Below, one piece after another: positions 15,643-64,000 of a stretch of 64,000 nucleotides of DNA. Position 1 is the stretch's first letter; the number at the start of each line of letters is the position of its first letter. This stretch comes from Actinomycetota bacterium (lineage in GTDB: Bacteria > Actinomycetota > Geothermincolia > Fen-727 > Anoxymicrobiaceae). The notes below the pieces were generated by a model. That model made no database searches. It saw nothing but the letters and a program-made list of their open reading frames with translations, and was not told the DNA's origin. Both the position numbers and the translations under genes were made by a program. Location of the stretch: NCBI GenBank assembly GCA_018831265.1, contig JAHJCO010000041.1, forward strand, positions 33,700-97,699. Direction: 5' to 3'.

Positions 15643-16815
15643 CTATAGCCTGATCGTGATATCGCCCAGCGGGTAGGACATGCAGGGATGGATGTAGCCG
15701 AAAGCCACGTCGGCCTTGCGCAGCACCACCGAGGCGGGCATGAACACCTCGCCGGAAACCAGTTGAGAGCGGCAGACCCCGCATTCCCCCGAGCGGCAGA
15801 GGTTCTCGACCGCGACACCGTTGCGCTCGAGCGAGTTGAGCAGCGGCTCCCCGCAAAGGGCCTCGAAGCTCGACCGCGTGCCCTCTATCCTGACGGTGGC
15901 CTTCTTCGAGGGCTTGATCTTCTTCGGCCAGCCTTCGACCAGGGTAATGTCAGGCGGCGGGCCGCTCGCCTCCTTCTTGACGCTCGCCGGGGAGACCCCG
16001 AGCCCCTCCAGCGCCCCGGTGCACAGCCCGTACATCGCGTGGGGCCCGCAGATGAAGAACGTCTTGCCCTCCGCCCCGTCCAGCAGGGACGAGAGCATCG
16101 GAGCGTCGAGGAAGCCGCGGCAGCCGCTGAACTCGTCCGGCGGCTCGCTGATTACCAGGTCCAGCCGGAAGCTCTCATGGGTACGGGCCATCGCGGCCAG
16201 CTCATCCTCGAAGATGACATCGTCGAGGGTGCGCGAGCCGTACACCAGGTGGACGCGCGGCCCGGCGTCCAGGTCGGCGAAAGAGCGGACCATGCTCATG
16301 AAGGGGGTCACGCCGCTGCCCCCGGCCAGGAACACCAGCTCACGTGAGTCGGTCATCGGCTCGTGGTAGAAGGAGCCCCCGGGGCCCGAGAGCTCGAAGA
16401 CGTCGCCCACGGCGGCTTCTTCGCAGAGGTACACCGAGACGAACCCTGACGGCATCTTACGAACCGTGATGTCCAGGTAGCTCCTGGTGGGAGGAGACGA
16501 GACACTGTAGGCGCGGCTGGTGCGCACCCCGCCCACCTCGCAGAGTAGGGCGAAGAACTGCCCCGCGCGAAACGGCGGGAACGGCTCGCCGACCGGCACC
16601 AGGCGGAGCGTCCTGGTGCTGGCCGTCTCCTCTATGATCTCCGCGACCCTGCCGGGCACGCGCCGGGGGTGCAGGCGCTCCACCAGCTCGTCGGGGAGCC
16701 CCGGCTCCACGTCCCTGACGTCGGCCAGCGAATCGGCCACCATCTGCTTGCCCAGCACGAGCCCGATGGAGGCCACGTCGTGAAGCCCGTCGGCCAGGTC
16801 CCTCAGCGCCATCAC
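15643..16815 (-). CDS. ferredoxin-reductase-type oxidoreductase: FAD-binding + NAD(P)-binding + C-terminal plant-type 2Fe-2S ferredoxin domain
   Basis: RxYS FAD motif (RAYSVSSPP), GGSGVTP NAD-binding motif, and C-terminal CRSGECGVCRS...C cluster. Confidence 0.8.
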   Translation of the reverse strand: MMALRDLADGLHDVASIGLVLGKQMVADSLADVRDVEPGLPDELVERLHPRRVPGRVAEIIEETASTRTLRLVPVGEPFPPFRAGQFFALLCEVGGVRTSRAYSVSSPPTRSYLDITVRKMPSGFVSVYLCEEAAVGDVFELSGPGGSFYHEPMTDSRELVFLAGGSGVTPFMSMVRSFADLDAGPRVHLVYGSRTLDDVIFEDELAAMARTHESFRLDLVISEPPDEFSGCRGFLDAPMLSSLLDGAEGKTFFICGPHAMYGLCTGALEGLGVSPASVKKEASGPPPDITLVEGWPKKIKPSKKATVRIEGTRSSFEALCGEPLLNSLERNGVAVENLCRSGECGVCRSQLVSGEVFMPASVVLRKADVAFGYIHPCMSYPLGDITIRL

Positions 16816-44750: not shown

Positions 44751-44856
44751 GACAGGGAGGTCAGCCTGGCCGAGCCCTGTTTCCCCGACGAGGAATGATC
44801 CCCGGGTTTCCCCGGTCTATGAGCCGCCTCCTGCGGGCATCCGACCCGCGGCCGCG

Positions 44857-46551
44857 CTACTCCTTCCTGAGAACCTTCTTGTCGACCTTACCCACGGCGG
44901 TCAGCGGCAGCTCCTGCCTTATCTCGATCGTCTTGGGGACCTCGTAAGGTGTCAGCTTGTCCTTCGCCATCTTCATGATGTCCGCTTTCAGGCCCTCGTC
45001 GTCGCCCTGGAACTTGTTCCCGGGAACGGGTGTGACGAGGGCCTTCACGAGCTCCGACCCCGGACGCTCGGGATTGGGAACGCCGATGAGTGCGACCATG
45101 TCGACCGCGGGGTGCTCGGCGAGGACCTCCTCGACCTTCTTGGAGAACACCTTGAACCCGCTCACGATGATCATGTCCTTGGTCCGGTCCACGATCCTGA
45201 GGTAGCCCTCGGGGTCCTGCACCGCCACGTCACCGGTGTGCAGGTATCCCTCGGAGTCGAAGACGAGGGCCGTCTCCTCGGGCTTGTTGTAGTAACCGGG
45301 CATGACCATCGGCCCCTTGACGCAGATCTCGCCGGGCTCGCCGAGCGCGGCCTCCCTGCCGGTGTCGGGATCGATCAGCCTGATGTCGGTGTTGGGCAGC
45401 GGCAGGCCGATGCTGCCGAGCTTCTTCACTCCCCGGTACGGGTTCATCGCCGTCAGAGGGGAGGTCTCGGTCATCCCGTAGACCTCCATCAGCTTGCCTT
45501 TCCCCACGACGCTTTCGAGCTGCTTCTGGGACTCCTCGGGGAAGGGCGCGGCGGCGGTGACGCACACCTCGATGTTGGAGTGATCGAGCTCCATGAACTT
45601 CGGGTTTGCGATGAGCATCTGGAATAGTGAAGGAACGTTGACCAGCGCGGTCGGCCTGTACTTGGCCAGCTCCTTGCAGATGTGGTCGGTGTCCCTCGGG
45701 TTGGGGATGAGCACCTGGGTCCACCCCAGGTAGATGCAGTTCTCGTTGAAGAACAGTCCGGCCACGTGGAAGAACGGGAAGCCGGACAAGGCCACTCCCT
45801 TGCCCTTCTCCCAGCCCAGCCAATCCTGCACCAGCAGCAGGTCGGAGACCGCGTTCCTGTGCGTGAGCATGGCGCCCTTGGGGCTGCCGGTCGTTCCGCC
45901 GGTGTACTGGATGTAGGCTATGTCATCGGGAGTGATCTCCACGGTCGGATGCTCCGCCGAGTACTTCGGGTCACCGATGACCTCTTTCATGTCGACGACC
46001 GTCTTGCCGGGCAGGGGCGTGACCTGACCCGTGGGGATCTTCTTGAGCAGCTTGCCCAGGAACCTCTTTATCCAGGGCAGAAACCCCCCGACGCTGGCGG
46101 TCGCCACCAGCTTCAGGTCGGGGAGGTTGGAGCTTATGCCCACCAGCCTTCCGGCGAAGATGGCGTCGAGCGTTACCAGGGCCTTAGCGTTCACGTCGCT
46201 CAGCTGGTACTCCATCTCCTCGGCCGAGAGCAGCGGTGAGACGCCCGACACGACACAGCCTGCGCGCAGGGTGCCCAGCCAGGCAATGACGTACTCGGGG
46301 ATGTTGGGCAGGTTTATCCCGACGACGTCCCCCTTCTTCAGTCCGTTCTTGATGAGCATGTCGGCGAACCGGTTGGCGTAGCGGTCCAGGTCGCCGTAGG
46401 TGACCTCGACGCCCATGTATGCCAGGGCCGCCTTGTTGGGGAACTCCTTGAAGATCTGCTTCACCGCCTCGACGTAGGTCGTCTCCCAGCTCTCCGGGTC
46501 CAGGTCGGTGATGCCGGCATCGTAGGACTTGGTCCAAAACCGCTCTGCCAT
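44857..46551 (-). CDS. long/medium-chain acyl-CoA synthetase (AMP-binding family)
   Basis: 564 aa with QYTGGTTGSPKGAMLTHRN. Confidence 0.9.
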   Translation of the reverse strand: MAERFWTKSYDAGITDLDPESWETTYVEAVKQIFKEFPNKAALAYMGVEVTYGDLDRYANRFADMLIKNGLKKGDVVGINLPNIPEYVIAWLGTLRAGCVVSGVSPLLSAEEMEYQLSDVNAKALVTLDAIFAGRLVGISSNLPDLKLVATASVGGFLPWIKRFLGKLLKKIPTGQVTPLPGKTVVDMKEVIGDPKYSAEHPTVEITPDDIAYIQYTGGTTGSPKGAMLTHRNAVSDLLLVQDWLGWEKGKGVALSGFPFFHVAGLFFNENCIYLGWTQVLIPNPRDTDHICKELAKYRPTALVNVPSLFQMLIANPKFMELDHSNIEVCVTAAAPFPEESQKQLESVVGKGKLMEVYGMTETSPLTAMNPYRGVKKLGSIGLPLPNTDIRLIDPDTGREAALGEPGEICVKGPMVMPGYYNKPEETALVFDSEGYLHTGDVAVQDPEGYLRIVDRTKDMIIVSGFKVFSKKVEEVLAEHPAVDMVALIGVPNPERPGSELVKALVTPVPGNKFQGDDEGLKADIMKMAKDKLTPYEVPKTIEIRQELPLTAVGKVDKKVLRKE

Positions 46552-46698
46552 CTCGTTCCCCCCTTAATCGGTGACCCTGCCGCTACAGGGCAAGATTGTA
46601 CAACGCCCGGCCAGTCCAGTGAATAGCCTGGGGGTCAGGCACCATTCAATTCATTCGCGGGAGGGGGAGCAGGACGGAGCCAAACCTGATCCCGGTAA

Positions 46699-46753
46699 GT
46701 AGACTGACGTGTCAATCTCCTATATTGACATGTCAGTCTACCACCGCTATAAT
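46699..46753 (+). promoter_or_regulatory. sigma70-type promoter (TTGACA-17 nt-TATAAT) overlapped by an 18-bp inverted-repeat operator GTAGACTGACGTGTCAAT-N7-ATTGACATGTCAGTCTAC
   Basis: -35 TTGACA at 46725-46730 and -10 TATAAT at 46748-46753, about 35 nt upstream of the lipase start. The palindrome has one mismatch and sits in the divergent region with the acyl-CoA synthetase gene. Confidence 0.6.
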
Positions 46754-51910: not shown

Positions 51911-53191
51911 TCAGGGCCAGTCCGTTATGGTGGTCCGGCCTGCCGGCACCGTGCGCACGCGTTCGTCGTTCACGGGCAGGCGCCTGTAGTGGAGGACCGC
52001 GAGCAGGGTCATGGAAAGGAGCATGGCCAGTATCAGCGCGTAGCCGGGCAGGTGGCGCCAGTTCTGATTGAGCACCGCGTAGATGATGAAGGCGACCAGC
52101 AGGACGCACGGCCATGAGAGCTTGACCACGGCCGCCCTCCTGGCCTTCCTCGTGTCGAAACCATCCCCGCCGACGAAGGTACCCGGGGAGCGTGCGGCAA
52201 GCGCGATCATGACCAGGCAGGCTGCCGCCAGCAGCGGCACGAAGACCATGCTCCTGGTTCTGTGGTAACCCCAGACGGCGACGAAAGGAGCCGCGAAGAG
52301 GAGGAACCCGATTGCCGCCCGCCTCACACGCTCGGCCACAGGGACCTGTACGAGACCCGACTGCCGCAGCTCAGCGACGCGACGCGAGTAGTGGTAGACA
52401 CACTCGAAGCACCCGGCACCCGCCACCATCACCGAGCACGAGAACGCCAGAGCGATGACGACCGCAGGCGCCTGCAGAGAGCCGCCGGGCGCGAGGAGCT
52501 CCGCGATGGACAGCGGCCAGAAGACTCCGTTCGCCGCGAGTACGAGCACTCCCGCCAGGATGAGGGAGGGGTACCACCGGACCTCGCGGAACAGCCGGAA
52601 GCCCGACGCGACGCCGGAGAAGGGATTCCCGGTCCCCTCGTAGACGGCGCAGTGATAGCCGAGGAGGAACGGCGATATCAGGGGCGCCGCCGGCACCACC
52701 GTCGCTCCCAGAAGCACCGAGCCGACGAGGAACCCGACAACGCCGCCGAGATCCGCACGCGCCGCGTCGGGCACCATGACCTCCATGAAACGGGACATAA
52801 GGTAGATGCTCGCGAACGACACCGAGAGGACGATGACACCGAGGGCGAGCGCGGTCGGTATCATCGGGGCGAAGCGGCGGACGGAGCCCTTCAACCGGGG
52901 CCACCCCGCCAGGCCGAACGAGCCCTCCGCGAGGTAAGCGACGGCGAAACCGTAGAGGATCAGTAGCACACCGACGGCAACAACAGCGCACAGCACGAGT
53001 GCGGGCGTGGCGTCGCCGACTCCCGGCATGCGTACCCCGGTGCGGGCCAACCATGGGAGGAGGATCGCCGTGGCGGGCAGCAGCAGTGCCCCCACCGCCA
53101 GAGGGCTGCGGCCGAGCGAGACCAGGCCGTGCGACAAGGTCCGCGCTATCAGCAGGAAGCCTCCACGCAGCCCGAGACCCTCTTCGCCCAT
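51911..53191 (-). CDS. polytopic integral membrane protein, unknown function
   Basis: 426 aa, about 10 TM helices, no recognisable motifs. Confidence 0.5.
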   Translation of the reverse strand: MGEEGLGLRGGFLLIARTLSHGLVSLGRSPLAVGALLLPATAILLPWLARTGVRMPGVGDATPALVLCAVVAVGVLLILYGFAVAYLAEGSFGLAGWPRLKGSVRRFAPMIPTALALGVIVLSVSFASIYLMSRFMEVMVPDAARADLGGVVGFLVGSVLLGATVVPAAPLISPFLLGYHCAVYEGTGNPFSGVASGFRLFREVRWYPSLILAGVLVLAANGVFWPLSIAELLAPGGSLQAPAVVIALAFSCSVMVAGAGCFECVYHYSRRVAELRQSGLVQVPVAERVRRAAIGFLLFAAPFVAVWGYHRTRSMVFVPLLAAACLVMIALAARSPGTFVGGDGFDTRKARRAAVVKLSWPCVLLVAFIIYAVLNQNWRHLPGYALILAMLLSMTLLAVLHYRRLPVNDERVRTVPAGRTTITDWP

Positions 53192-53200
53192 GCTGTATCC

Positions 53201-54637
53201 TCAGTTCAAGACGCGTTCATCTGTACAGACTCCGGGGGAGGGAGCCGGCATCGCGGCCTGGCCCCGCCCTTCCCGGAGGTATTCGTCGATCGAGCGCGCG
53301 GCCCGCCTGCCGTGCGCGAGGGCCTTGCACACCAGCCCCGCCTCACCCGTGCAGTCGCCGCCCGCGAACACGCCCGGCAGGGACGTCATCATCCCCCGGT
53401 CCACCCGCACCCCATCGCGCCCGCCCCGGTCGATGCCGGCCGGCGCGCAGAACTCCGGGGCCCGGGGCCTGAAGCCGAATGAGACCACGACGAGGTCGGC
53501 ATCCAGACTCTTCCCTTCGCCGGGAACGCGCCAGAACTCGGGGGCGCCGTCCGAAGGGACGCATTCGACCCCGGTCAGCGCGACCGCGCGGACGGCTGCG
53601 GCCCCGTCGCCGCGGAAGCGCGTGGGCCCGAAGCCGGGCAGCATCCTGACTCCCTCGGCCCGGGCGACGCGGTACTCCGATGGAGAGCCGGGGCGAAGCT
53701 CCTCGCTCTCCCGGAACGCGCAGGTAACGGGCGAGTAGCCGAGCCTCACGGCGGCACGGGCACAGTCCATCGCGGAGTCCCCGCCTCCAAGGACCACCGC
53801 CTTGCCGGGGCCGCGCCGCCCTTCACCGCGGTTGAACGCTCTCAGGAACTCTTCCGCGCCGAGCACGTTTTCCAGTTCCCTTCCCGGCGCATCGGGAATG
53901 TCGATGGCGTGGTGGGCGCCGGTCGCTATGAACACGGCGTCGTACCCGTCTCTGAGCTCCTGCATGCTCATGGACGTGCCGACCTCCGCGCCGAGCCTGA
54001 ACTCGACACCGCGCCGCTCGAGCGCCTCCAACCGCCGGTTCAACAGGCCCTTCTCCAGCTTGAAGCCTGGGATGGTCGTGGCCGGTAGGCCCCCCGCCAC
54101 GGGCTCCTTCTCCATCACGGTCACCCTGTGCCCCGCCCGGCTCAGGAACTCCGCGCAGGAGAGCCCGGCCGGACCCGAGCCTACGACCGCAACCGATGTG
54201 TCCAGGGGCCGTATCGAGGCCTCTATCTCCGGCATGACACACTCGAGGGCTATCCCGGCCAGGAACCGCTCGGCGTACTGGATCGTGACCGCGCCTGTCC
54301 TGTCGCCGACGGCGCAGGCGCCCTCGCACAGACGGTCGGCCGGGCAGATCCTGCCGGTGACCTCCGGGAGGGGGTTGGTGAGGGCAAGAACCCGCGCGGC
54401 CTCCGTCACGAGCCCCTCCCGCAGCAGGTCCATCCAGGTCGGAATGTCGTTCCCCAGCGGGCAGGAATCGGCGCAGCGCGGAATGCAGCACGTTATACAG
54501 CGCCGGGTCTGCCCGGCCACGGCCACCGGGCCCAGCCCCTGGTGGATCTCGCCGGCGTCCCCGATGCGCCGCGAGACCCTCCTCTCCACGGGCCGCACCC
54601 GCACCGTCTTCTCGAAGGCCGGTCTCCGCCTGCTCAA
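53201..54637 (-). CDS. glutamate-synthase small-subunit (GltD)-like NAD(P)H oxidoreductase (N-terminal 2x[4Fe-4S] + FAD/NAD(P)-binding)
   Basis: ...RCITCCIPRCADSCP...; GxGxxG VAVVGSGPAGLSCAEFL and a second dinucleotide fold. TTG start at 54637 (GGAGAAGGTGGAG upstream) preferred; the ATG at 54715 would overlap the ferredoxin gene by 82 nt. Confidence 0.75.
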   Translation of the reverse strand: MSRRRPAFEKTVRVRPVERRVSRRIGDAGEIHQGLGPVAVAGQTRRCITCCIPRCADSCPLGNDIPTWMDLLREGLVTEAARVLALTNPLPEVTGRICPADRLCEGACAVGDRTGAVTIQYAERFLAGIALECVMPEIEASIRPLDTSVAVVGSGPAGLSCAEFLSRAGHRVTVMEKEPVAGGLPATTIPGFKLEKGLLNRRLEALERRGVEFRLGAEVGTSMSMQELRDGYDAVFIATGAHHAIDIPDAPGRELENVLGAEEFLRAFNRGEGRRGPGKAVVLGGGDSAMDCARAAVRLGYSPVTCAFRESEELRPGSPSEYRVARAEGVRMLPGFGPTRFRGDGAAAVRAVALTGVECVPSDGAPEFWRVPGEGKSLDADLVVVSFGFRPRAPEFCAPAGIDRGGRDGVRVDRGMMTSLPGVFAGGDCTGEAGLVCKALAHGRRAARSIDEYLREGRGQAAMPAPSPGVCTDERVLN

Positions 54638-54933
54638 CTGACTCCACCTTCTCCGCCTGAATTCGCATCGGCGTCCGACCCCGATGCGATCAACGCTCCC
54701 GTGCCGAGAGCACAATCCGCTTCCCAGGCCTGGGTCCTCTCCCTGCGCGCGGGATCCACGCGGACGGCTCCGACCGGGCAGGTGAGCTCGCAGTTGTAGC
54801 AGGTCATACAGTCGTCCCTGTACCTGATCTTCGCCTTGCGGCTTGGCGGATCGAGGTGGATGACGTCCATCGGACAGCAGACGTCACAGTTCCCGCATCC
54901 CAGGCAGAGCTCCTCGTCGATACGGTCTATCAT
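54634..54933 (-). CDS. 2x[4Fe-4S] ferredoxin
   Basis: CLGCGNCDVCCP and CMTCYNCELTCP motifs; 99 aa; 4-nt overlap with the upstream flavoprotein gene. Confidence 0.8.
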   Translation of the reverse strand: MIDRIDEELCLGCGNCDVCCPMDVIHLDPPSRKAKIRYRDDCMTCYNCELTCPVGAVRVDPARRERTQAWEADCALGTGALIASGSDADANSGGEGGVS

Positions 54934-56678
54934 CTTGCCGCTCCCACCTCCCGGATCCGGTCGCTCTTCAGGTCCGGGCCGAACGGGTATCGGTCCAGCG
55001 GCACGTCCTCCCTTTCAAAGGAGGCGCTGCCGTCCGGCTCCCTGCGCACGTTGATCCAGGCGAGCCAGCTCTCGTCGTCGGTTGAAGGGAAGTCCACCCT
55101 GAAATGGTCAGCCCGCGACTCCTGGCGGATCAGGGAGACCCGCAGGTACAGCTCGGCCACCGCGACCATGTTCGCCGTCTCGTGAGCCTTGACGAGCTGG
55201 TGAGGGTCCTCGGCGCTGAGCGCGGGCACGAGCTCGTCCCGGAGCCTCTCGACCTCCCGGAGCGCGCCGGAGAGAGAACCGGCGTCCTTGCACACGGAGA
55301 CACCGTACGGGAAGACCGCTCGCTGGAGCGCCGCGCAGACCCCGTCGGGGTCGGATCCGCCCCGGCACCTCAACGGGGCGAGGGCGCGTCGAGCGAGCTC
55401 TTTCTCTTCCCCCGGGTCCCGGCCGGCGTCGTCGCATGACAGGACGAACCCGGCGGCGGCCTCCCCGGAGCGTTCTCCGGACCACATCGCCCTCATGCTG
55501 GACCACCCGTTGAAGAGCCCCGGGTCCACGGACTGGGACAGCCCCGCCGCGAAGAGCCCGGGGAGGTCGGACATGCAGTCGGTCGATGTCCTGATCCCGC
55601 CGCGCAGGCTGTGGACGGCCGGGACCCACTCCTGGGGCCCGCGGAAGACGTCCACCCCCGTCTCCCTGAGCCGCTCGAGGTTGAGCGGTACCATGTTGCC
55701 GATGCGGTCCAGCAGCATGTGGATGATGTAGCTCGAAGGCTTGGAGGACATGTCGAAAAAGAACGGTGGTCCGTTTCCCTGCAGCAACTGGTCTGCCATG
55801 GCCTGAACGATGTAGCGGATCTCGGCGGAGTCGGCCCGCGGGTGGTACCGCTTCATGAACGGTTGCAGGTCCCGGTCGAGGAATCTCGCGAAGCGCGCGG
55901 CCATCCCCGTACCCTCGAACCCGTAGCGGGGCGAGCCCGTGTTGGACACCAGGAACTCCATGTTGTTCAGGCGGACGCCGGCGTCGTAGGCGAGCTTGAA
56001 CGCGTCACCGGTCACCTGGTCCACGCACAGGTAGTTGCCCCGGAAGCTGCAGTCCGCTCCGGCGAGTATGACCGCCCTGCTCCTGAAAGCGATCGGTTCA
56101 GCGGTGCGGCGGTCGACCCCGACCGCCCCGACCGCGCGACCGCCGCGGACCATGATGCCGGTGATCATCTTGCGCGGGTAGAGATCCACCCGGTGCTCGA
56201 AGTCGGGCGGTGCCTTGACCTGGCGAAGCATCGCTCGGACGACCGCCGATCCGCCCCTGGAGCCCGACCCCTTCGGGACCACCAGCATCCTCGCGCGCTC
56301 GAAGCCGCGGGAGGGGAGGGTGAAGTAACCGCCCCCGGGCAGGCGCATGTACTCGATGCCCCAGGACTCGAGCTTGCGCAGCCGCGAGTAGGAGGTCTCG
56401 AGGATCAGCGAGAGTATGTCCTGCCGCGAGAGGTACGAGTTGGCCCGGGCCATGTCGTCGAGCCACTCGTCGGGCCGGTGCTGCGGAAGGCAGAATATCG
56501 TGGCCCCGGCCGCCATCTTCGACTGGCTGGTGAGACTGATCGCCCCCTTGTCCGCGATCGCTATCCTCTTCACGCCCTTCGAGCGCGCGCTTATCGCCGC
56601 CCAGAGGCCGGCGAAGCCGCTGCCTACTATGAGCAGGTCGCAGTCGACTACATCGATGCCGTCATGGTCCACAGGCAC
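54930..56678 (-). CDS. FAD-binding flavoprotein of the fumarate-reductase/succinate-dehydrogenase/AprA superfamily
   Basis: N-terminus DCDLLIVGSGFAGLWAAISA...; 582 aa; paired with a small 2x[4Fe-4S] ferredoxin, as AprA is with AprB. Confidence 0.75.
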   Translation of the reverse strand: MPVDHDGIDVVDCDLLIVGSGFAGLWAAISARSKGVKRIAIADKGAISLTSQSKMAAGATIFCLPQHRPDEWLDDMARANSYLSRQDILSLILETSYSRLRKLESWGIEYMRLPGGGYFTLPSRGFERARMLVVPKGSGSRGGSAVVRAMLRQVKAPPDFEHRVDLYPRKMITGIMVRGGRAVGAVGVDRRTAEPIAFRSRAVILAGADCSFRGNYLCVDQVTGDAFKLAYDAGVRLNNMEFLVSNTGSPRYGFEGTGMAARFARFLDRDLQPFMKRYHPRADSAEIRYIVQAMADQLLQGNGPPFFFDMSSKPSSYIIHMLLDRIGNMVPLNLERLRETGVDVFRGPQEWVPAVHSLRGGIRTSTDCMSDLPGLFAAGLSQSVDPGLFNGWSSMRAMWSGERSGEAAAGFVLSCDDAGRDPGEEKELARRALAPLRCRGGSDPDGVCAALQRAVFPYGVSVCKDAGSLSGALREVERLRDELVPALSAEDPHQLVKAHETANMVAVAELYLRVSLIRQESRADHFRVDFPSTDDESWLAWINVRREPDGSASFEREDVPLDRYPFGPDLKSDRIREVGAAR

Positions 56679-56679
56679 C

Positions 56680-58197
56680 TCACTCGTTCACCCTGGCGAT
56701 CGCCGCCAGCGCTCGTTCCATCGAAGGGAACACCGGCACCCCTCTCTCGTGCAGGCGCGTCCTCATGCTGCGCAGGACGCCCTCGTAGTGGAGGTCGTCC
56801 TCGCCGCACGCCCGGGAATACAGGACCGCGGCCACAGGCTTGCCGCTGCGCGCGCGCGCTCCGAGCAGGGAATCCACCGACCGCTCGATGCTGTCCGCTC
56901 CGTAGAGCAGGTGCGCGAAGTTGACCGCCAGGTCGAAGACGAGCACGTCGGTGGTGGCGTTTCGCGACGCCTCGTCGATCGTCCGCTCGAAGAGCGCCGG
57001 GGGTATCAGGGGCGAGCCGATGTCGAGCGGGTTGGCGACCACGGTCCCGGCGCGGTCGAGCACCTCGCGCAGACGCGCCCCGGTACCCGCCTCCAGTGCC
57101 GGTACCTCGAGACCCGACTCCTCGGCGATATCGGCGCCCGAGGTCCCGAGCGCGCCGCCACCTCCACAGATGAGGACGCGGCGGCCGGGCCGCCTGCCCA
57201 TGTGCTTCAGGGCGAGCAACACGTCGCACAACCCGTCGATCCCCGAGGTCGTGATCACCCCGCACTGCCTCAACAGCGAGTCCCAGATGACGGGAGAGCC
57301 GGCCAGGCTTCCGGTGTGCGTCTGCACCGCGCGGCCGGCGGACGCGCCGCGGCCCGACTTCCACACGACGACCGGCTTTACCACAGCCGCCTCGCGGACC
57401 GCCTCGAAGAACCGATGTCCGCTCGAGGTACCTTCTATGTAGCAGGAGATGACGGCCGTGGCCGGGTCACGCGTGAAGTACCGGATGAGGTCTATCTCGT
57501 CGAGGTCCGCGGCGTTGCCGTAGCTGACCACGGCGCTGAAACCGACGCCGAGTCCCTTGCCCATCCGGGCGACATGGGCGCTGAACCCTCCGCTCTGCGA
57601 GATGAAGGCCACGTCACCCGGTTCGTGTGAGAAGTCGGGCCCGGGAAGCATGGTGAGCCGCGTGCGGGGGTTGTAGATGCCGAAGCAGTTCGGCCCGAGT
57701 ATCCGGAAGCCTCCTCGCCTGGCGATGCGGAGCGCCTCCCGCTCGAGCCGCAGACCGTCCTCCCCGATCTCTCGGAAACCGGAGGCTATCATCATCACGC
57801 ACCGGACGCCCACCGCGGCGCAATCGCGAAGTACGTCGATGGAGAGGTGCGCGGGAATGGCGAGGTAGACCAGGTCGGGCCTGCTCGGGAGGCTGAGCAG
57901 GTCGGGGTACGCCCGGACGCCGAAGACCTCGTCCTCGTTGGGATTTACAAGGAACACATCGCCGTCGAAATCCATCTCGAGCTGGGACCTGGTGTAGTAG
58001 TAACCGAACTTGGCGGGGGAGTTCGAGGCGCCCACCACCGCCAGGGAACGGGCGTTGATGATCGAGTCCATCTGGCGGAAGTCGAACGGGCGGAGCAGTT
58101 CACCGTCGTCTTCCCGTCCCCGCTCCCCCCGTGCCGACAGGTCCGCCCCTGACCCGGCGCTGCCTGCCTCTGCTGTGTAAATGGAATGACTAGTCAT
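56680..58197 (-). CDS. acyl-/acetyl-CoA synthetase (NDP-forming) alpha-type subunit (CoA-binding + CoA-ligase domains)
   Basis: ...INARSLAVVGASNSPAKFGYY..., succinyl-CoA-synthetase-like flavodoxin domain. ATG 58197 has GGAGG 7 nt upstream, and the start codon sits inside the palindrome GGAATGACTAGTCATTCC. Confidence 0.75.
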   Translation of the reverse strand: MTSHSIYTAEAGSAGSGADLSARGERGREDDGELLRPFDFRQMDSIINARSLAVVGASNSPAKFGYYYTRSQLEMDFDGDVFLVNPNEDEVFGVRAYPDLLSLPSRPDLVYLAIPAHLSIDVLRDCAAVGVRCVMMIASGFREIGEDGLRLEREALRIARRGGFRILGPNCFGIYNPRTRLTMLPGPDFSHEPGDVAFISQSGGFSAHVARMGKGLGVGFSAVVSYGNAADLDEIDLIRYFTRDPATAVISCYIEGTSSGHRFFEAVREAAVVKPVVVWKSGRGASAGRAVQTHTGSLAGSPVIWDSLLRQCGVITTSGIDGLCDVLLALKHMGRRPGRRVLICGGGGALGTSGADIAEESGLEVPALEAGTGARLREVLDRAGTVVANPLDIGSPLIPPALFERTIDEASRNATTDVLVFDLAVNFAHLLYGADSIERSVDSLLGARARSGKPVAAVLYSRACGEDDLHYEGVLRSMRTRLHERGVPVFPSMERALAAIARVNE

Positions 58198-58200
58198 TCC
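58183..58200. promoter_or_regulatory. perfect 18-bp palindrome GGAATGACTAGTCATTCC overlapping the acyl-CoA synthetase start codon (copy 1 of 3)
   Basis: Other copies are GAATGACATGTCATTC at 59397-59412 and GGAATGACAAGTCATTCC at 59665-59682. Confidence 0.7.
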
Positions 58201-58369: not shown

Positions 58370-59215
58370 TTAATCCATGACCTTCTTCCAGTTCGACTTG
58401 GTGGTGAGCTCGAACATCACATCGAGCAGATGCTGCGGGTCCCACTCGCTGTCCAGGTTGACCAGCAGCAGGGCGGTCTCGATGACGCCGACCAGGAAGT
58501 ATCCCCAGACCTGCGCGGTGATGGGCGGCAACTGGCGGTTCTTCACGGCCTCCTCCAGGTCCTGCTGGATGGTCGCCGCCACGATGCCGTATACCTCTCT
58601 TCTCTTGGCCTCGAGGCGCACGTCGCTCTCCACGGTGTGATACATCGCCTGCAGCAGGTCGATGAACTGGGGGTAGTTGATCAGGACCACTTCACCCCTC
58701 GCTCTCAGGCGCTCGAGGGGGTCCTCGATCTGCTCCACCTTCTCCCAGACCCCGGTGAACATCGCCTGGATGACCCTGTCGACGCACTCCATGAAGAGCG
58801 TCTTCTTGCTGGGGAAGTAGAGGTAGAAGGTGCTGTGGCCCACACCGACCTCTTTGGCGATGTCGCTGATGGTGGTATTGTGGTAGCCCTTGCGCGAAAA
58901 TACCTCAACCGCCCTGTCCATTATCTGCGCCCGGCGGCCCATGGACTCGATGGGGAGCCTTTCCCCCGACTCACCCTTTCTCTCCCTCTCCAGGATGTTC
59001 CTGATATAAGAGAGGGGGAACCCCTCCTCCCTCATCTCCTTGATCTCGACCAGCTCCCTGAGGTGGTCCTCGTTGTAGTAGGCCATCGTCTTGCCGGTCT
59101 TGTGGGGTGCGGTAAGGATCCCCTCCCGGAGGTAGTAGTGTATGGTGTTCCTGCTGATCCCCGTCGCCTTCTCGAGGTCGGAGATCCTCAGCGGCGCGCC
59201 TGCCGATTCTTCCAT
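58370..59215 (-). CDS. transcriptional regulator: N-terminal MerR-like HTH fused to a TetR-family HTH + ligand-binding domain
   Basis: LRISDLEKATGISRNTIHYYLREGIL is MerR-type; ...TISDIAKEVGVGHSTFYLYFPSKKTLF... is a TetR HTH. Divergent from the etf operon and flanked by GGAATGAC palindromes. Confidence 0.7.
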   Translation of the reverse strand: MEESAGAPLRISDLEKATGISRNTIHYYLREGILTAPHKTGKTMAYYNEDHLRELVEIKEMREEGFPLSYIRNILERERKGESGERLPIESMGRRAQIMDRAVEVFSRKGYHNTTISDIAKEVGVGHSTFYLYFPSKKTLFMECVDRVIQAMFTGVWEKVEQIEDPLERLRARGEVVLINYPQFIDLLQAMYHTVESDVRLEAKRREVYGIVAATIQQDLEEAVKNRQLPPITAQVWGYFLVGVIETALLLVNLDSEWDPQHLLDVMFELTTKSNWKKVMD

Positions 59216-59396: not shown

Positions 59397-59412
59397 GAAT
59401 GACATGTCATTC
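59397..59412. promoter_or_regulatory. palindrome GAATGACATGTCATTC (copy 2)
   Basis: In the ~500-bp AT-rich intergenic region, about 185 bp upstream of the regulator start. Confidence 0.6.
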
Positions 59413-59664
59413 CATCTCCGCAGCCAAGCCGCGAGAAGTGTTGCCCGATCCCGCTTTGATACATAGACAGGGATACGCAGCATCGGCTGGACCTGACGGC
59501 TGCGTGCTATGTAGTGGTTAGGTACTGTAACTACATAATATTGTGTGGGCTTCGGGTTGCAGGACAAGACACAACCTGGCGAAATAATGCAGTCAAACCC
59601 GAGAAAAGCGAAGAATACTATTGACTTTAGTATATTAGAGTCAGTACTATACTGTAGTGTAAAA

Positions 59665-59682
59665 GGAATGACAAGTCATTCC
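59665..59682. promoter_or_regulatory. palindrome GGAATGACAAGTCATTCC (copy 3), ~30 bp upstream of the etfA start
   Basis: Read directly. Confidence 0.65.
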
Positions 59683-59713
59683 ACATCCATAAAGTAAGCG
59701 GAAGAGGGCGAGC

Positions 59714-60745
59714 ATGAAAGGCGAGTTGAACGGTAGCAGTGGCGTGATGGTCTTCGCCCAGTGCTCCGGGGAAAAGGGTATGAACCGGCTTGCCGGAGAG
59801 CTGGCCGGACTCGGGATGAGGCTTGCGAAAGACCTGGGCGAAGATGCGACCGTCGTGGTCTGTGGACCTGGGGCTGAACGGGCGGCGGACGAGCTGGCGG
59901 GGCTCGGGATGAGGACCTGCCTCGTGGAAGGCGCGGAAGCCGTCGCGGGGAGCGGTTGCGTACCGGCGACCGTCGCGGGGCCCCTCTGCCTGAGAGAGCG
60001 CCCGAGGCTTGTGATGTACGGGCATGTTCCCCCCGGCGACGAGGAGGCGGTGAGGCTCGCCTACCTGCTGGGCGCGGGGGTCACCAGCGACTGCACGGCC
60101 ATGGAGGTGTGTGACGAACGCGAGATAGTCCTGAGCAAGCCCGTGTACGGAGGCAACGTCATGGCCAGGTTCAACCCCGAGTCCTATCCGTATGTGGTGA
60201 CGGTGAGGCCGCACGTCGGCGTCGCCCCGGAGCCGGGAACGTCCGTGGTCGGAGAGATCGTACGACTGGAGGCCTCGGATCTTCTGCCCGACGGCGACGA
60301 CGCCGCGCGTCGGGGAGCCACCCTCGTCAGCAGGGAGCAGGTCCCCTCGAACGGGGTGTGCCTCGAGGAGGCGGGCGTGGTGGTGGCCGGCGGCCGGGGC
60401 ATGGGCGGACGGGAGGGGTTCGAGAGCCTGGAGAAGCTCGCGGGACTGCTGGGCGGGGCCGTGGGAGCCTCCCGGCCCCCGTGCGATTCGGGCTGGGCCA
60501 ACTCCGCTTCGCAAGTCGGCATCACCGGGAAGATTGTGGCGCCCGACATCTACATCGCGGTCGCGATCTCGGGCTCGACCCAGCACCTGTCCGGCATGTC
60601 CGACGCCGGGACGATAGTCGCGGTCAACCGCGACCCTGACGCCTACATATTCAAGGTCTCCGACTACGGTGTCACCGGTGACTGGAAGGAAGTGCTCCCG
60701 GCCTTCACGGCGAGGCTCGCGGAGATGAAGCGCCAGGAGGGATGA
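59714..60745 (+). CDS. etfA: electron transfer flavoprotein alpha subunit (EtfA/FixB-type)
   Basis: C-terminal FAD-binding region ...IVAPDIYIAVAISGSTQHLSGM...VAVNRDPDA...; GAAGAGGG upstream. Confidence 0.9.
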   Translation: MKGELNGSSGVMVFAQCSGEKGMNRLAGELAGLGMRLAKDLGEDATVVVCGPGAERAADELAGLGMRTCLVEGAEAVAGSGCVPATVAGPLCLRERPRLVMYGHVPPGDEEAVRLAYLLGAGVTSDCTAMEVCDEREIVLSKPVYGGNVMARFNPESYPYVVTVRPHVGVAPEPGTSVVGEIVRLEASDLLPDGDDAARRGATLVSREQVPSNGVCLEEAGVVVAGGRGMGGREGFESLEKLAGLLGGAVGASRPPCDSGWANSASQVGITGKIVAPDIYIAVAISGSTQHLSGMSDAGTIVAVNRDPDAYIFKVSDYGVTGDWKEVLPAFTARLAEMKRQEG

Positions 60746-60749
60746 GAGG

Positions 60750-61550
60750 ATGGAAGAGCTCGATATCATCGTCTGCGCCAAGCAGGTCCCCGACCCGGAA
60801 GCGCCTCCGTCCTCCTTCAGCATAGACCGGGAGTCGATGTCGGTCGTGCCCCACGGCGTGCCGCCGGTGACGAACCCGTTCGACGAGAACGCGCTCGAGC
60901 TGGCCATACGCATCAGGGAGCTGACCGGTGGGACCATAACCATGCTCAGCATGGGGAAGTCCATCTCGCGGGCGGTCCTGCTGAAGGCGATGGCCACGGG
61001 AGCGGACAGGGCGGTCCTGATCGAGGATCCGGCGGCCGAGGTCGGCCCGGCCGCCGGCTCAGCCACCGCGAGAGTGCTGGCAGAGGCGGTGCTGAGGATC
61101 GGGAGGTTCGACCTCCTGCTCGCCGGCCGGCAGGCGGCAGACACGAACTCTGGCCAGGTCGCCATCGGCCTGTCGGTGCTCCTCGGCATCCCCTGCGTAA
61201 CGCGGGCATCCTCGGTCGAGGTCCGGGACGGACGCCTGCTGGTAGAGCGTACGCTGCCCGACTCGCTGGAGGTCGTGGAGGTCTCGCCGCCGGCGGCCCT
61301 CATAACCGGCCCGGAGGCGGGAGACCTCCGGTACCCGAAGATCGCCGATATCAAGGCCGCAAAGGGTAGGCCGTGTGAGGTGCTCCACCTGGCCGACCTC
61401 GGCGTGGAGCAGTCCGGTGCACCGCGCGTGCGGCTGCTGGACCTCACCCAGCCCGTACGAGAGCGTCGGTGCCGGATGGTTGACGGCGAGAGCGGGGCGG
61501 AGGCGGGCGAGAGGCTGGCCGCCCTGCTGCAGGGAAAGGGAGTTATCTGA
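60750..61550 (+). CDS. etfB: electron transfer flavoprotein beta subunit (EtfB/FixA-type)
   Basis: MEELDIIVCAKQVPDPEAP... is the EtfB N-terminus; 266 aa. Confidence 0.9.
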   Translation: MEELDIIVCAKQVPDPEAPPSSFSIDRESMSVVPHGVPPVTNPFDENALELAIRIRELTGGTITMLSMGKSISRAVLLKAMATGADRAVLIEDPAAEVGPAAGSATARVLAEAVLRIGRFDLLLAGRQAADTNSGQVAIGLSVLLGIPCVTRASSVEVRDGRLLVERTLPDSLEVVEVSPPAALITGPEAGDLRYPKIADIKAAKGRPCEVLHLADLGVEQSGAPRVRLLDLTQPVRERRCRMVDGESGAEAGERLAALLQGKGVI

Positions 61551-61574
61551 GCCGCTCGACGGCGGCTGATAGGA

Positions 61575-62057
61575 ATGGGAATGGAGACCCGCAGGGTCAC
61601 GACCAAGGAGGTGAAGCGGATGGCCATGGAAGCGTCCGACGTCTCGGCGTTCATGTTGTCCGCGTATCGTAACGGCGTGCTGGACCGATTCGTCCCGATC
61701 CTGGGAAAGGCAATGGACGGCGCCCTGGCCGAAGCCGGCGTCGGCCTCGAGCAGATCGTCTACCAGATAGACGAGGCCGGAGAGGATACCCTGCGAAGGC
61801 TGGGCCTCTACTTCTCGCGGTCCGCCGTGTTGATGCGGCTGGCGGCGAGCGACGCCGTCATGAAGGTGCTCTCGGTGATGCTGGGTACCCGCCTTGTCTC
61901 GCGCTCGGTCGAGGCCGTCCTGCGCTTCTCGCTGGGGCTGGTGCTGTCATCCGGAGCGGACGCGGGCACGCTCGGTGAACGGTTGAAAGCCCGTGCCGGG
62001 GCGCGGCGGGGAGGACCTCGCCGCGAGGCGCAAGGTGGTGGTGAAAATGGCCGTTAA
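61575..62057 (+). CDS. hypothetical protein (160 aa), uncertain
   Basis: Open frame between etfB and the FAD oxidase with no recognisable motif; the Gly/Arg-rich C-terminus overlaps the next gene's leader. Could be non-coding. Confidence 0.3.
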   Translation: MGMETRRVTTKEVKRMAMEASDVSAFMLSAYRNGVLDRFVPILGKAMDGALAEAGVGLEQIVYQIDEAGEDTLRRLGLYFSRSAVLMRLAASDAVMKVLSVMLGTRLVSRSVEAVLRFSLGLVLSSGADAGTLGERLKARAGARRGGPRREAQGGGENGR

Positions 62058-63525
62058 GGCTGTGGAAGACCTCAAGGAACGGCTGGCCGGGATAGTGGGA
62101 GAGACCTCCGTCAACGACGACAGGAACGACCTCCTGCAGTACGCGCGGCCCGACGGAGACGGTCACCTGCCGACCTGCGTGGTCAGGCCCGTGAACCCGG
62201 AGCAGGTCACGGCGCTGGTCGTCCTGGCCAACGAGACCGGGCTGAACCTGGTGCCGGTCTCGTCCGGCCCCCCCCACGCCCGTGGAGGGACCGCCCCGGA
62301 GAGCGGTGCGGTGATGGTGGACCTCTCGGCCATGGACCGGATAGTCAGGATGGACAGGAGGAACAAGGTCGCCATCGTCGAGCCCGGGGTCACGTTCGGG
62401 CGGCTGGCGTCAGAGGCCTCGAAGGTGGGCCTGAAGGCTCTCATGCCACTGCTACCCAGGCAGCGTAAGTCCGTGCTCGCTAGCTACCTGGAGCGCGAGC
62501 CGATAATCATCCCCAAGTACCACTGGGACGCGACGGACCCCCTGCTCTGCATGGAGGTGGTCTTCGGTACCGGGGACATGTTCCGCACCGGCTCGGCGGC
62601 GGGCCCCGGCAGCCTGGAACAGCAGTGGGAGCACGGGGAGGCGCAGAAGAACCCCATGGGGCCGGGCCAGACCGACTTCGGCAGGCTCGTGCAGGGTGCC
62701 CAGGGGACCATGGGGATAGTCACCTGGGGCTCGGTCAAGCTCGAGGTCATGCCCTCCGAGCACAGGATCTACTTCGTCAACGACTCGCTGGAACGGCTGA
62801 TCGAGTTCGCCTACCCGGTGCTGAGGAGAAAGATGGCCGACGAGTTCCTGATCCTGGACGGGACCGCGTTTGCGACCACGATGCGAGGGGGCGCCGCGGA
62901 GATAGGCGATCTCGCGGGCCGGATCCCGGGCTACGTGCTGGTGCTGGGGATCTCCGGGTACGAGTACTTCCCCGGGGAGCGGGTGACCTACCTGGTGAAC
63001 GACATGGCGGACCTGGCCAAGGAGGCAGGCGTCGCGCTTACCAGGAGCGCCGCTGGTGTCGATCACCTGGAGGCGGAGCGCGCGCTTTCGGGTCCGTCGG
63101 GCGAGCCGTACTACAAGCACAGGATGAAGGGCGGCTCGAGGGACCTGTTCTTCCTCACCACCCTGGACCGGGTGCCGGCATTTACCGCGGCAATGGAGTC
63201 GCTTGCACAGGAGCACGGTCATCCCGTCGGGGAGATCGGGACGTATATCCAGCCGATCCAGCACGGCCGCACCGTGCATCTAGAGTTCGACATCTACTTC
63301 GATCCGGGTTCGGCGAAGGACGCCGCCCGGGCGGGCGGGTTGTTCTCCGCCGCGGCGAAGGCCTGCCAGGAGATGGGAGGCTTCTTCTCCCGCCCGTACG
63401 GTCCCTGGGCGGATATGGCCTTCGAGGCGTGCCCGGACACGGTGGACGCCCTGCTCAAGGTCAAGAGGGTCCTCGATCCACGCGGCGTGATGAACCGGAA
63501 CAAGCTCTGCTTCAAGGAGGCGTAG
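62047..63525 (+). CDS. FAD-linked oxidase (GlcD / D-lactate dehydrogenase-like, PCMH-type FAD-binding + C-terminal oxidase domain)
   Basis: ...VVRPVNPEQVTALVVLANETGLNLVPVSSG... FAD_binding_4. Start ATG 62047 with AAGGTGGTGGTGA upstream. Confidence 0.85.
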   Translation: MAVKAVEDLKERLAGIVGETSVNDDRNDLLQYARPDGDGHLPTCVVRPVNPEQVTALVVLANETGLNLVPVSSGPPHARGGTAPESGAVMVDLSAMDRIVRMDRRNKVAIVEPGVTFGRLASEASKVGLKALMPLLPRQRKSVLASYLEREPIIIPKYHWDATDPLLCMEVVFGTGDMFRTGSAAGPGSLEQQWEHGEAQKNPMGPGQTDFGRLVQGAQGTMGIVTWGSVKLEVMPSEHRIYFVNDSLERLIEFAYPVLRRKMADEFLILDGTAFATTMRGGAAEIGDLAGRIPGYVLVLGISGYEYFPGERVTYLVNDMADLAKEAGVALTRSAAGVDHLEAERALSGPSGEPYYKHRMKGGSRDLFFLTTLDRVPAFTAAMESLAQEHGHPVGEIGTYIQPIQHGRTVHLEFDIYFDPGSAKDAARAGGLFSAAAKACQEMGGFFSRPYGPWADMAFEACPDTVDALLKVKRVLDPRGVMNRNKLCFKEA

Positions 63526-63527
63526 GC

Positions 63528-64000
63528 TATGGCGCTCACAGATTACGTCAGGGACATGAGGGGCTGCTCCCGCTGCTCGTCGTGCAAATGGGTCCCGTTC
63601 AACCAGGTCAAGAGCTGGCGGAACGCCATGAACTGCCCGGCGATCACCAGGTTCAACTTCCACGCCTACTCGGGCAGCGGCAAGATGAACATGGGCCTGT
63701 CGCACCTGCAGGGCAGGAGCGAGCTGACAGAGGGCGCGGCCGACATCATCTACCACTGTCAGCTCTGCGGGGCGTGCGAGGTCTCGTGCAAGGTCTACCG
63801 CGACGACATAGACCTGACCGACGTGCTGCTGGAGCTGCGCGCCACATGCGTGGAGGAAGGCCAGCTCATGGTCGAGCACATGGCCATGCTGGACTTTCTG
63901 AAACGTGACGACAACCCGCTCGGAGAGCCCAAGAGCACGCGCGGCGACTGGACCGAAGGGCTGGGGCTCAAGGATATAAACCGGGAGCCCGCCGACGTCA
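63528..64000 (+). CDS. Fe-S oxidoreductase (GlcF/LutA-like, Cys-rich CCG-type), 3' truncated by the window edge
   Basis: MALTDYVRDMRGCSRCSSCKWVP...CPA...YHCQLCGACEVSCKV: two Cys clusters typical of GlcF/HdrD-like proteins. ATGG overlap with the upstream gene stop. Confidence 0.7.

Follow-up and report, generated by a model that had tools for sequence, protein, structure and literature searches.

The stretch of DNA analysed here, referred to as the window, comprises 64,000 nucleotides of contig JAHJCO010000041.1 from an uncultured member of the Actinomycetota, and at its far end a cluster of flavoprotein and iron-sulfur (Fe-S) protein genes is found. All of the genes lie on the + strand, with the gene calls backed by Pfam. 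The first two encode an electron-transfer flavoprotein (Etf): EtfA (59714-60745, 343 amino acids (aa); ETF and ETF_alpha, E 1.5e-30), the carrier of the shuttle-domain flavin adenine dinucleotide (FAD), and EtfB (60750-61550, 266 aa; ETF, E 3e-28). These are followed by a small helical protein of 160 aa without a family match (61575-62057), a 492-aa protein with a FAD_binding_4 domain and a weak FAD-oxidase_C match (62047-63525), here called FADa, and a CCG-type Fe-S protein (63529-64000; Fer4_8, E 1e-8), which runs past the window end with the N-terminal 157 of its 421 aa inside. In public gene calls, FADa starts at the ATG at 62047 and not at the GTG at 61993, while one such call places the start of EtfA at a TTG at 59726. 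The gaps between the successive genes measure 4, 24, -11 and 3 bp, and the genes therefore form a single operon. An earlier note on this DNA had grouped EtfAB with the FAD protein and the CCG protein, which is borne out by the operon and by a linkage recurring across phyla. Its gene order, with etfA upstream of etfB, is also as observed, and the 160-aa open reading frame (ORF) that it placed between etfB and the oxidase is a real gene, with homologues at 26-42% identity in the same position elsewhere. The Fe-S ORF is separate and truncated by the window, as had been described, although its ATG sits at 63529, one base later than the 63528 given. On the opposite strand, an antisense ORF of 675 aa (59627-61654, - strand) spans both etfA and etfB, a high-GC artefact that is favoured by naive ORF picking.

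The part of the locus beyond the window end was read from a public contig that was matched by exact protein (JAHJFB010000063.1 of GCA_018824995.1, a metagenome-assembled genome (MAG) named 'Actinobacteria bacterium'; locus L001). The rest of the Fe-S gene, to which the earlier note had pointed, is present on this contig, and the complete protein of 421 aa has a Fer4_8 domain and two CCG domains. A second FAD_binding_4 protein of 561 aa, here called FADb, is encoded 16 bp after it. Judged by gene content, the enzyme core would consist of three subunits, FADa, CCG and FADb, which are predicted to form a complex, and it is this second flavoprotein past the window end that leads to a trimer plan like that of GlcDEF. 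The earlier note had not seen this further subunit, and the LctBCD-type complex that it proposed gives way to the GlcDEF-like trimer. Downstream of FADb, L001 encodes two tandem 267-aa Cys-rich ferredoxin-like proteins, a YeiH-type membrane protein and a Y1 transposase. The tandem proteins (15823-16626 and 16658-17461 of L001, about 1.8-3.5 kb past the window end) are paralogues with a CHCCPCCC motif, further Cys-rich motifs in the N-terminal part and a C-terminal 2x[4Fe-4S] domain. Their N-terminal 190 aa are without a family match, and genes similar to them have been detected near the FADa-CCG-FADb triad in four other loci.

FADa, accession MBU1670829.1, is presumed to be the catalytic subunit. 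Its best matches in a phmmer search of the PDB are 4-phenol-oxidising enzymes of the VAO/PCMH family (E 4e-18, FAD domain only), followed by mouse D-lactate dehydrogenase (D-LDH; 5.5e-10) and by LctD of A. woodii (7qh2_C; 0.0019, FAD domain only). The PDB ranking of FADb follows the same pattern, its FAD domain being nearest to VAO/PCMH-type enzymes. An AlphaFold2 (AF2) model of FADa, built on 60 sequences, has a mean predicted local distance difference test score (pLDDT) of 86.8, and Foldseek aligns it with vanillyl-alcohol dehydrogenase, PCMH and eugenol oxidase (EUGO) at TM-scores of 0.78-0.81 (query; E 4e-30) and with mouse D-LDH at 0.74. In the model, FADa thus has the two-domain VAO/PCMH fold, with FAD-binding and cap domains. 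This fold would fit a 4-alkylphenol or vanillyl-alcohol oxidase (VAO), but such an identity is not favoured, as the phenolate-binding tyrosine of the SxGxNxGYGG loop (Tyr108 in VAO and Tyr91 in EUGO) aligns with Arg79 of FADa (SSGPPHARGG; 8s7t alignment). Arg79 is near-invariant, with more than 90% conservation in the family.

The 'GlcD-like' label that FADa had been given in the earlier note, and with it the assignment as a dehydrogenase of 2-hydroxyacids such as lactate, finds little in its favour. An alignment of the FADa family with E. coli GlcD by hhalign reaches 96.5% probability over 408 columns, and in it the His/His/Glu positions of GlcD and D-LDH fall on (His/Gln)406, Glu413 and Pro450 of FADa, with the 'SGEHGIG' of GlcD/LDHD opposite 'SRPYGPW', the Glu-His of the metal site being replaced by Pro-Tyr. 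The NCBIfam glcD model yields 44 and 54.5 bits against a cut-off of 568, the GlcE model E 0.007 and the GlcF model 25 bits against a cut-off of 333, while local identity to the corresponding E. coli proteins is only 21-29% for FADa (GlcD), FADb (GlcE) and CCG (GlcF). A lactate or glycolate dehydrogenase is ruled out by these model scores, by the PDB ranking and by the active-site alignment. From its sequence, FADa is thus predicted to act on a substrate that is neither of the lactate/glycolate type nor of the 4-alkylphenol type. Automatic labels such as 'glycolate oxidase', 'D-lactate dehydrogenase' and 'FAD-binding oxidoreductase' have led to thousands of uncultured anaerobes being credited with lactate or glycolate use; by the tests given here the lactate/glycolate label is wrong for the triad family, and a widespread mis-annotation is corrected.

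The Fe-S subunit has its best PDB match in the soluble region of EtfD from M. smegmatis (9ojn_A; E 4.9e-25, residues 48-419 against 383-746), which serves as an electron wire from ETF to the membrane, with electrons entering the module from ETF (9OJN). All four sets of Cys motifs are complete (C13/16/19/36, C77/80/83/87, C163/198/199/235/238 and C289/349/350/387/390), corresponding to two [4Fe-4S] clusters and two complete CCG domains. The hydrophobicity of the full 421-aa protein reveals no transmembrane (TM) segment, so that there is no haem/membrane domain of the EtfD type, and a role as a membrane Etf:quinone oxidoreductase (EMO/EtfD) is thereby ruled out. Among NCBIfam models the best match is TfrB of thiol:fumarate reductase (133 bits), with HdrB, GlpC and LdhH weaker; the TfrB and HdrB scores are far below the family cut-offs. 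The placement of a membrane-less EtfD/HdrD-like module between two flavoproteins, and mostly by etfAB, is the strongest hint as to the way in which the trimer and the Etf communicate.

Compared as whole proteins, both Etf subunits match bifurcating Etfs best, with CarE (2e-55, from CarE residue 66), 5ol2_A and 7koe_B as the leading PDB matches of EtfA and a match of EtfB to CarD at 2.6e-32. The motifs by which EtfB was examined were taken from the structural work on Ldh-EtfAB, where mutagenesis has shown that DGDTAQVGP at the bifurcating FAD (b-FAD), RxFxG at the NAD site and SPT are needed for bifurcation (PMC9232219). In the window EtfB, the b-FAD stretch reads DTNSGQVAI, identical to DGDTAQVGP at 3 of 9 positions. 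EDPAAEVGP occupies the NAD-site region where RxFxG (DRxFxGAD) lies, within EDPAAEVGPAAG, which has a 2-aa insertion and is like the human VEVPPAEAERLGP. SPT is replaced by APR, the GSPTQ of A. fermentans standing opposite GAPRV. The same state is found throughout the family: a GRQAADTNAGQVG-like sequence of the D(T/W)(N/D)xGxxG type is common to all triad-linked EtfBs (53/53), none of which has DRxFxGAD, the Arg of the RxFxG motif or SPT, and the motif of the clade can be given as GRQAADTN(A/S)GQV(G/A). The C-terminal 192 aa of EtfB, where the second cofactor site lies, score 57 bits to human and Paracoccus ETF and 37-53 bits to A. fermentans, C. difficile, A. woodii and T. maritima (four of the five bifurcating references).

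EtfA has neither the N-terminal [4Fe-4S] ferredoxin domain of LctC and CarE nor any N-terminal Cys cluster, its alignment beginning at residue 66 of CarE and residue 85 of LctC. The position that faces N5 of the b-FAD is a Lys (SKPVYGGN vs TRPAFGGN) where LctC has Arg205; the same position is also an Arg in the non-bifurcating ETF of G. metallireducens (5ow0), and is not diagnostic. A bifurcating or confurcating Etf had been proposed in the earlier note, which regarded the b-FAD residues of EtfB as decisive, and in this form the proposal does not stand, as a canonical bifurcating Etf is ruled out by the three EtfB motifs together with the missing ferredoxin domain of EtfA. By sequence, the Etf belongs to a distinct clade that branches with the Etfs of anaerobes without carrying their bifurcation signatures. 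It is most likely a plain, non-bifurcating carrier predicted to hold one flavin.

Relatives of FADa occur in the thousands at 45-60% identity, all from uncultured sources and under generic names, and no organism in culture or with a name was among the homologues retrieved around the Desulfobacterota members. In a collection with one genome per species, at least 582 stretches with such relatives have been confirmed by tblastn. Their hosts include Actinomycetota (among them Geothermincolia), Dehalococcoidia, Desulfobacterota, Syntrophomonadaceae, Hadarchaeota and Asgard archaea. The gene neighbourhood was examined in 81 non-redundant loci, and 77 of them have CCG while 70 have FADb. For the well-flanked subset, which has 5 kb or more of sequence to both sides, the figures are 37/37 and 35/37, and the FADa-CCG-FADb triad is the conserved core of the family. 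EtfB is encoded within 10 kb in 27 of these 37 loci and EtfA in 23, while a FixC-like flavoprotein and a FixX-like ferredoxin are each found in 18. The label 'FixC-like' is a loose one, the best score being to the geranylgeranyl-reductase family and the second to FixC. Other genes that recur near the triad encode aldehyde:ferredoxin oxidoreductase (AOR), TetR regulators, thiolase, enoyl-CoA hydratase, acyl-CoA dehydrogenase and corrinoid proteins.

The triad is present in duplicate or triplicate in several genomes (L012/L017/L033, all in one MAG, L013/L030, L079, L081, L084 and L089), with the copies sometimes in tandem or head-to-head, which suggests that substrate specificity has diversified within one organism. 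In many of the Actinomycetota relatives (L006, L008, L018, L021, L023 and L073), a conserved divergent flank encodes ferritin, a B12-binding radical-SAM protein, a 109-aa unknown protein, a fusion of HMG-CoA-synthase-like and DUF35 domains, and thiolase, and the downstream side of the triad has FixCX-like genes, amidohydrolase_2 and a tungsten-type AOR. No member of this set, from ferritin to AOR, has been detected next to the window copy.

The 160-aa protein is free of cysteine and carries a conserved SAYRNGVLD motif. It has 122 homologues, which belong to Actinomycetota wherever the organism is named, and in the loci that have it the gene is always directly upstream of FADa. The AF2 model (pLDDT 72.6) is all-helical, with nine helices; no Pfam or NCBIfam family and no PDB fold match has been found for it. 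The protein could be a lineage-specific structural or adaptor subunit of the Actinomycetota enzymes.

Divergently from etfA, a 281-aa regulator is encoded (58370-59215, - strand) in which an N-terminal MerR helix-turn-helix (HTH) domain (MerR_1, 2e-18) and a TetR_N HTH domain (1e-19) occur in one protein, an unusual architecture. By NCBIfam, its TetR part is nearest to the acyl-CoA-responsive FasR and FadR models, both far under cut-off, and genes for TetR regulators lie beside the triad in many of the related loci. The region between etfA and the regulator gene is AT-rich and some 500 bp long, and contains a candidate sigma-70-like promoter (59621-59650, + strand; TTGACT, 18-nt spacer, TACTAT), a consensus match only. 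Eight promoter-like sites occur between 59100 and 64000 where 0.6 are expected, and seven of them are intergenic. A palindrome, GAATGACANGTCATTC, has seven strand-matches with at most two mismatches in the window (0.01 expected) and three copies with at most one mismatch. The first copy, the perfect 16-bp palindrome GAATGACATGTCATTC, lies in the divergent intergenic region (59397-59412), the second, GAATGACAAGTCATTC, within the stretch that separates the -10-like hexamer from the etfA start codon (59666-59681), and the third, GAATGACTAGTCATTC, over the ATG at which the divergent operon's first gene starts (58184-58199; ORF start 58197). A weaker fourth copy with two mismatches (46702-46717) is placed between an AMP-forming acyl-CoA synthetase/CooS-like gene pair and an alpha/beta hydrolase gene. 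These palindromes are putative operators, probably of the MerR-TetR regulator, and would mark a small regulon. Together with the regulator, they also offer a practical route to the substrate through ligand screening.

The divergent operon (51911-58197, - strand) begins with an ADP-forming acyl-CoA synthetase alpha-like protein (56680-58197), the beta/ATP-grasp part of which is not encoded next to it. It continues with a TfrA/SdhA-like flavoprotein of 580 aa (54930-56678), a 2x[4Fe-4S] ferredoxin of 99 aa (54634-54933), a GltD/NfnB-like NAD(P)H oxidoreductase (53201-54637) and a 9-TM protein of 426 aa without a known family (51911-53191). Because the putative operator is common to both, this operon and the etf-trimer operon probably constitute one co-regulated regulon. 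In L056, from Desulfobacterales, a TfrA-like and ferredoxin gene pair directly follows etfAB, which in turn follows the triad. The divergent operon may be the electron outlet of the system, in the role that FixCX-like genes have in relatives. The CooS gene that the earlier note had reported for the neighbourhood is also present, as a gene of the CooS/prismane family (42807-44816). It encodes a protein of 670 aa and lies directly downstream of the AMP-forming acyl-CoA synthetase gene on the same strand (42807-46563, - strand), a pairing that is unusual for a CO dehydrogenase-like gene.

The reading that is preferred here, and that is held to be somewhat more likely than not, is that the locus encodes a substrate-inducible, soluble dehydrogenase of a GlcDEF-like or 'BeDH-like' kind, which delivers electrons through an EtfD-like Fe-S subunit to a dedicated Etf, probably a non-bifurcating one, that would pass them to another oxidoreductase. 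An organic substrate would be dehydrogenated at the flavin of FADa, and the Fe-S subunit, with its two [4Fe-4S] clusters and its CCG clusters, would conduct the electrons to the shuttle FAD in EtfAB, in a contact that would use the module by which mycobacterial EtfD meets ETF. The Etf would then reduce a further oxidoreductase, which in about half of the relatives would be the flavoprotein of the FixC/geranylgeranyl-reductase family with its FixX-like ferredoxin, and in this genome probably the co-regulated module of TfrA-like flavoprotein, ferredoxin and GltD-like NAD(P)H oxidoreductase. The substrate may be a carboxylate or a CoA-thioester compound, since Arg79 is near-invariant, two acyl-CoA synthetases lie behind the same operator and the regulator is FadR/FasR-like. 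Several points weigh against this account. Over the first 190 aa, the median score of the triad-linked EtfBs is 120 bits to CarD and 72 to human ETF, and the Lys at the N5 position of EtfA is still positively charged. Bifurcating FixAB/EtfAB classically work with a pair of the FixCX-like type, and the Etf might conceivably be of a non-canonical bifurcating type. The class of substrate, moreover, is read from context, and homology to the benzene-associated trimers discussed below is putative.

Among the alternatives, a flow of electrons in the reductive direction is unlikely, though it fares better than most. In this case the Etf would be reduced by NADH or another dehydrogenase and would pass electrons through the CCG protein to the flavoproteins for the reduction of a substrate. 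Candidates for that substrate are a disulfide, acted on at the CCG clusters in the manner of Hdr and TfrB, and a compound of unsaturated or aryl type, for which the flavin would be the site by the logic of caffeyl-CoA reductase. TfrB as the best NCBIfam match of the CCG protein, with HdrB also matching, would agree with such a direction, as would the catalytic role of the CCG clusters in Hdr, the course of electrons from ETF into the EtfD module and the TfrA-like flavoprotein in the co-regulated operon. Yet enzymes of the VAO/PCMH family are almost always dehydrogenases or oxidases, and GlcDEF, the closest characterised architecture, is oxidative. The TetR clusters of the relatives, with thiolase, enoyl-CoA hydratase, acyl-CoA dehydrogenase and AOR, look catabolic, and none of the TfrB and HdrB scores comes near its family cut-off. 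An oxidative dehydrogenase that feeds the Etf remains the preferred reading.

The cluster has not been described in the literature on Etf, CCG and VAO themes that was consulted, while the theme of glcD, glcF and etfAB led to two papers of 2026 on anaerobic benzene degradation. Both in the sulfate reducer BzS1 (BzS1_12970/80/90; Musat et al. 2026, PMC13416013) and in 'Ca. Anaerobenzenivorax' ORM2a ('Magic' proteins #24-26; Toth et al. 2026, PMC13101534), the proteins of highest abundance when benzene supports anaerobic growth make up a presumptive heterotrimer. These trimers, of 54/48/66 kDa, belong to the VAO/PCMH family with at most 23% identity to GlcDEF, and the activity proposed for them is that of a flavin-dependent 'benzene dehydrogenase'. 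Their suspected electron partner is an Etf of high abundance, with EtfA3B3 of BzS1 an abundant candidate, and the authors hold that trimer homologues in NaphS2 and Desulfosarcina variabilis, which do not degrade benzene, must have other functions (PMC13416013, PMC13101534). As published, the benzene trimers are the nearest counterpart so far described, and they resemble the locus described here in gene order (a PCMH-type FAD protein with oxidase_C, an HdrB/GlcF-like Fe-S protein with Cys-rich domains, a PCMH-type FAD-only protein), in size (488/431/~580 aa, against 492/421/561 aa in the window family), in their labels of 'FAD-binding oxidoreductase' and '(Fe-S)-binding protein', in the nearby TetR and CoA-ester genes and in the suspected Etf partner. 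They differ in that the window family has etfAB in the same operon and an added small helical subunit, in that the ORM2a #25 Fe-S subunit has two degenerate Cys motifs where all are intact in the window, and in their hosts, which are benzene degraders of the Desulfobacterota or Pelotomaculum and not uncultured Actinomycetota.

A wider proposal would make the trimer with its non-canonical Etf a large, cross-phylum class of anaerobic enzymes for inert or unusual C-H bonds or rings, in which the proposed benzene dehydrogenase is one specialised branch and the Etf, with FixCX-like or TfrA/GltD-like partners, is the missing outlet and possibly a new form of bifurcation. This is rather improbable as it stands. 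If true, uncultured Actinomycetota of the subsurface, Dehalococcoidia and Asgard archaea would hold many paralogous 'inert-substrate dehydrogenases'. Independently of that proposal, the same plan has been put forward for anaerobic benzene activation without a known electron acceptor, and the linkage to the Etf clade in 27 of 37 loci, often with FixCX-like genes, constitutes a testable electron pathway, with the triad family supplying non-benzene paralogues for comparative biochemistry.

A role of the window enzyme itself in hydrocarbon or aromatic activation, as envisaged for BzS1 and ORM2a, is very unlikely. Flavin radical or hydride chemistry would take place on an unactivated ring or C-H bond, with addition to a co-substrate and removal of the electrons by the Etf. 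Such a role would suit the agreement in gene order, sizes and annotations set out above, and the AOR, amidohydrolase_2, corrinoid and beta-oxidation genes of the relatives are typical of anaerobic aromatic catabolism. However, the benzene function is itself unproven, the NaphS2 and D. variabilis homologues have other tasks according to the authors, and the degenerate Fe-S motifs of ORM2a stand against the complete set in the window. No benzoyl-CoA pathway genes were seen in the window stretches that were examined, and the top-100 BLAST lists published for the BzS1 subunits include none of 24 sampled accessions of the window family. By this absence from the lists, close orthology to the BzS1 and ORM2a trimers is unlikely, and the window family would at best be a sister clade. 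The family is widespread and uncharacterised, a variant of a recently recognised kind.

The electron-confurcating or bifurcating 2-hydroxyacid dehydrogenase/Etf complex of the A. woodii LctBCD type, in which substrate and reduced ferredoxin would together reduce two NAD+ at the b-FAD of EtfB, is very unlikely: the whole-protein matches of both Etf subunits (CarDE, 4kpu, 5ol2, 7qh2, 7koe), a FAD_binding_4 dehydrogenase adjoining etfAB as in lct operons and the ferredoxin-based anaerobe that the earlier note drew from CooS and AOR would accord with it, but the b-FAD, RxFxG and SPT motifs whose mutation abolishes bifurcation in Ldh-EtfAB (PMC9232219), the ferredoxin domain of EtfA, any LctD match outside the FAD domain, lactate-type or glcD scores near cut-off and the metal-site Glu-His are all missing, and the window enzyme has two further subunits that LctBCD does not have.

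When compared to known systems, the dehydrogenase with EtfAB encoded beside it recalls LctBCD (Ldh-EtfAB of A. woodii), CarCDE, Bcd-EtfAB and EtfABCX, to which the similarity of the Etf is highest and which the FixCX-like genes in about half of the window's relatives also bring to mind. It departs from them in the absent b-FAD, NAD and SPT motifs, in the absent ferredoxin domain and in a different, trimeric dehydrogenase. A fused CCG domain, which the earlier note had counted as a feature of LctBCD, is not a point of difference, as the solved LctD chain has 467 aa (7qh2_C) and is presumably without a CCG domain. With EtfD (9OJN), the EMO of syntrophs and HdrD, the CCG subunit shares the type of the EtfD soluble region, 2x[4Fe-4S] and 2xCCG, which takes electrons from ETF; unlike EtfD and EMO, it has no membrane or haem domain and cannot itself reduce menaquinone, and in the window family its gene is flanked by two flavoprotein genes. 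VAO, EUGO, PCMH and vanillyl-alcohol dehydrogenase are the best matches of FADa in both sequence (4e-18) and fold (TM-score ~0.8), although by sequence the FAD domain alone aligns, at 18-24% identity, and these enzymes differ in the phenolate Tyr, which is Arg in FADa, and in a cytochrome c partner, which the window enzyme lacks. Among characterised enzymes, the closest in architecture is GlcDEF of E. coli, which likewise has two FAD_binding_4 subunits and an Fe-S subunit of Fer4/CCG-CCG composition. The gene order is D-F-E in the window and D-E-F in E. coli, FADb has 561 aa against 350 aa for GlcE, the His/His/Glu site is not conserved in FADa, and the electrons of GlcDEF pass to quinone with no Etf, whereas those of the window enzyme would pass to an Etf encoded in its own operon.

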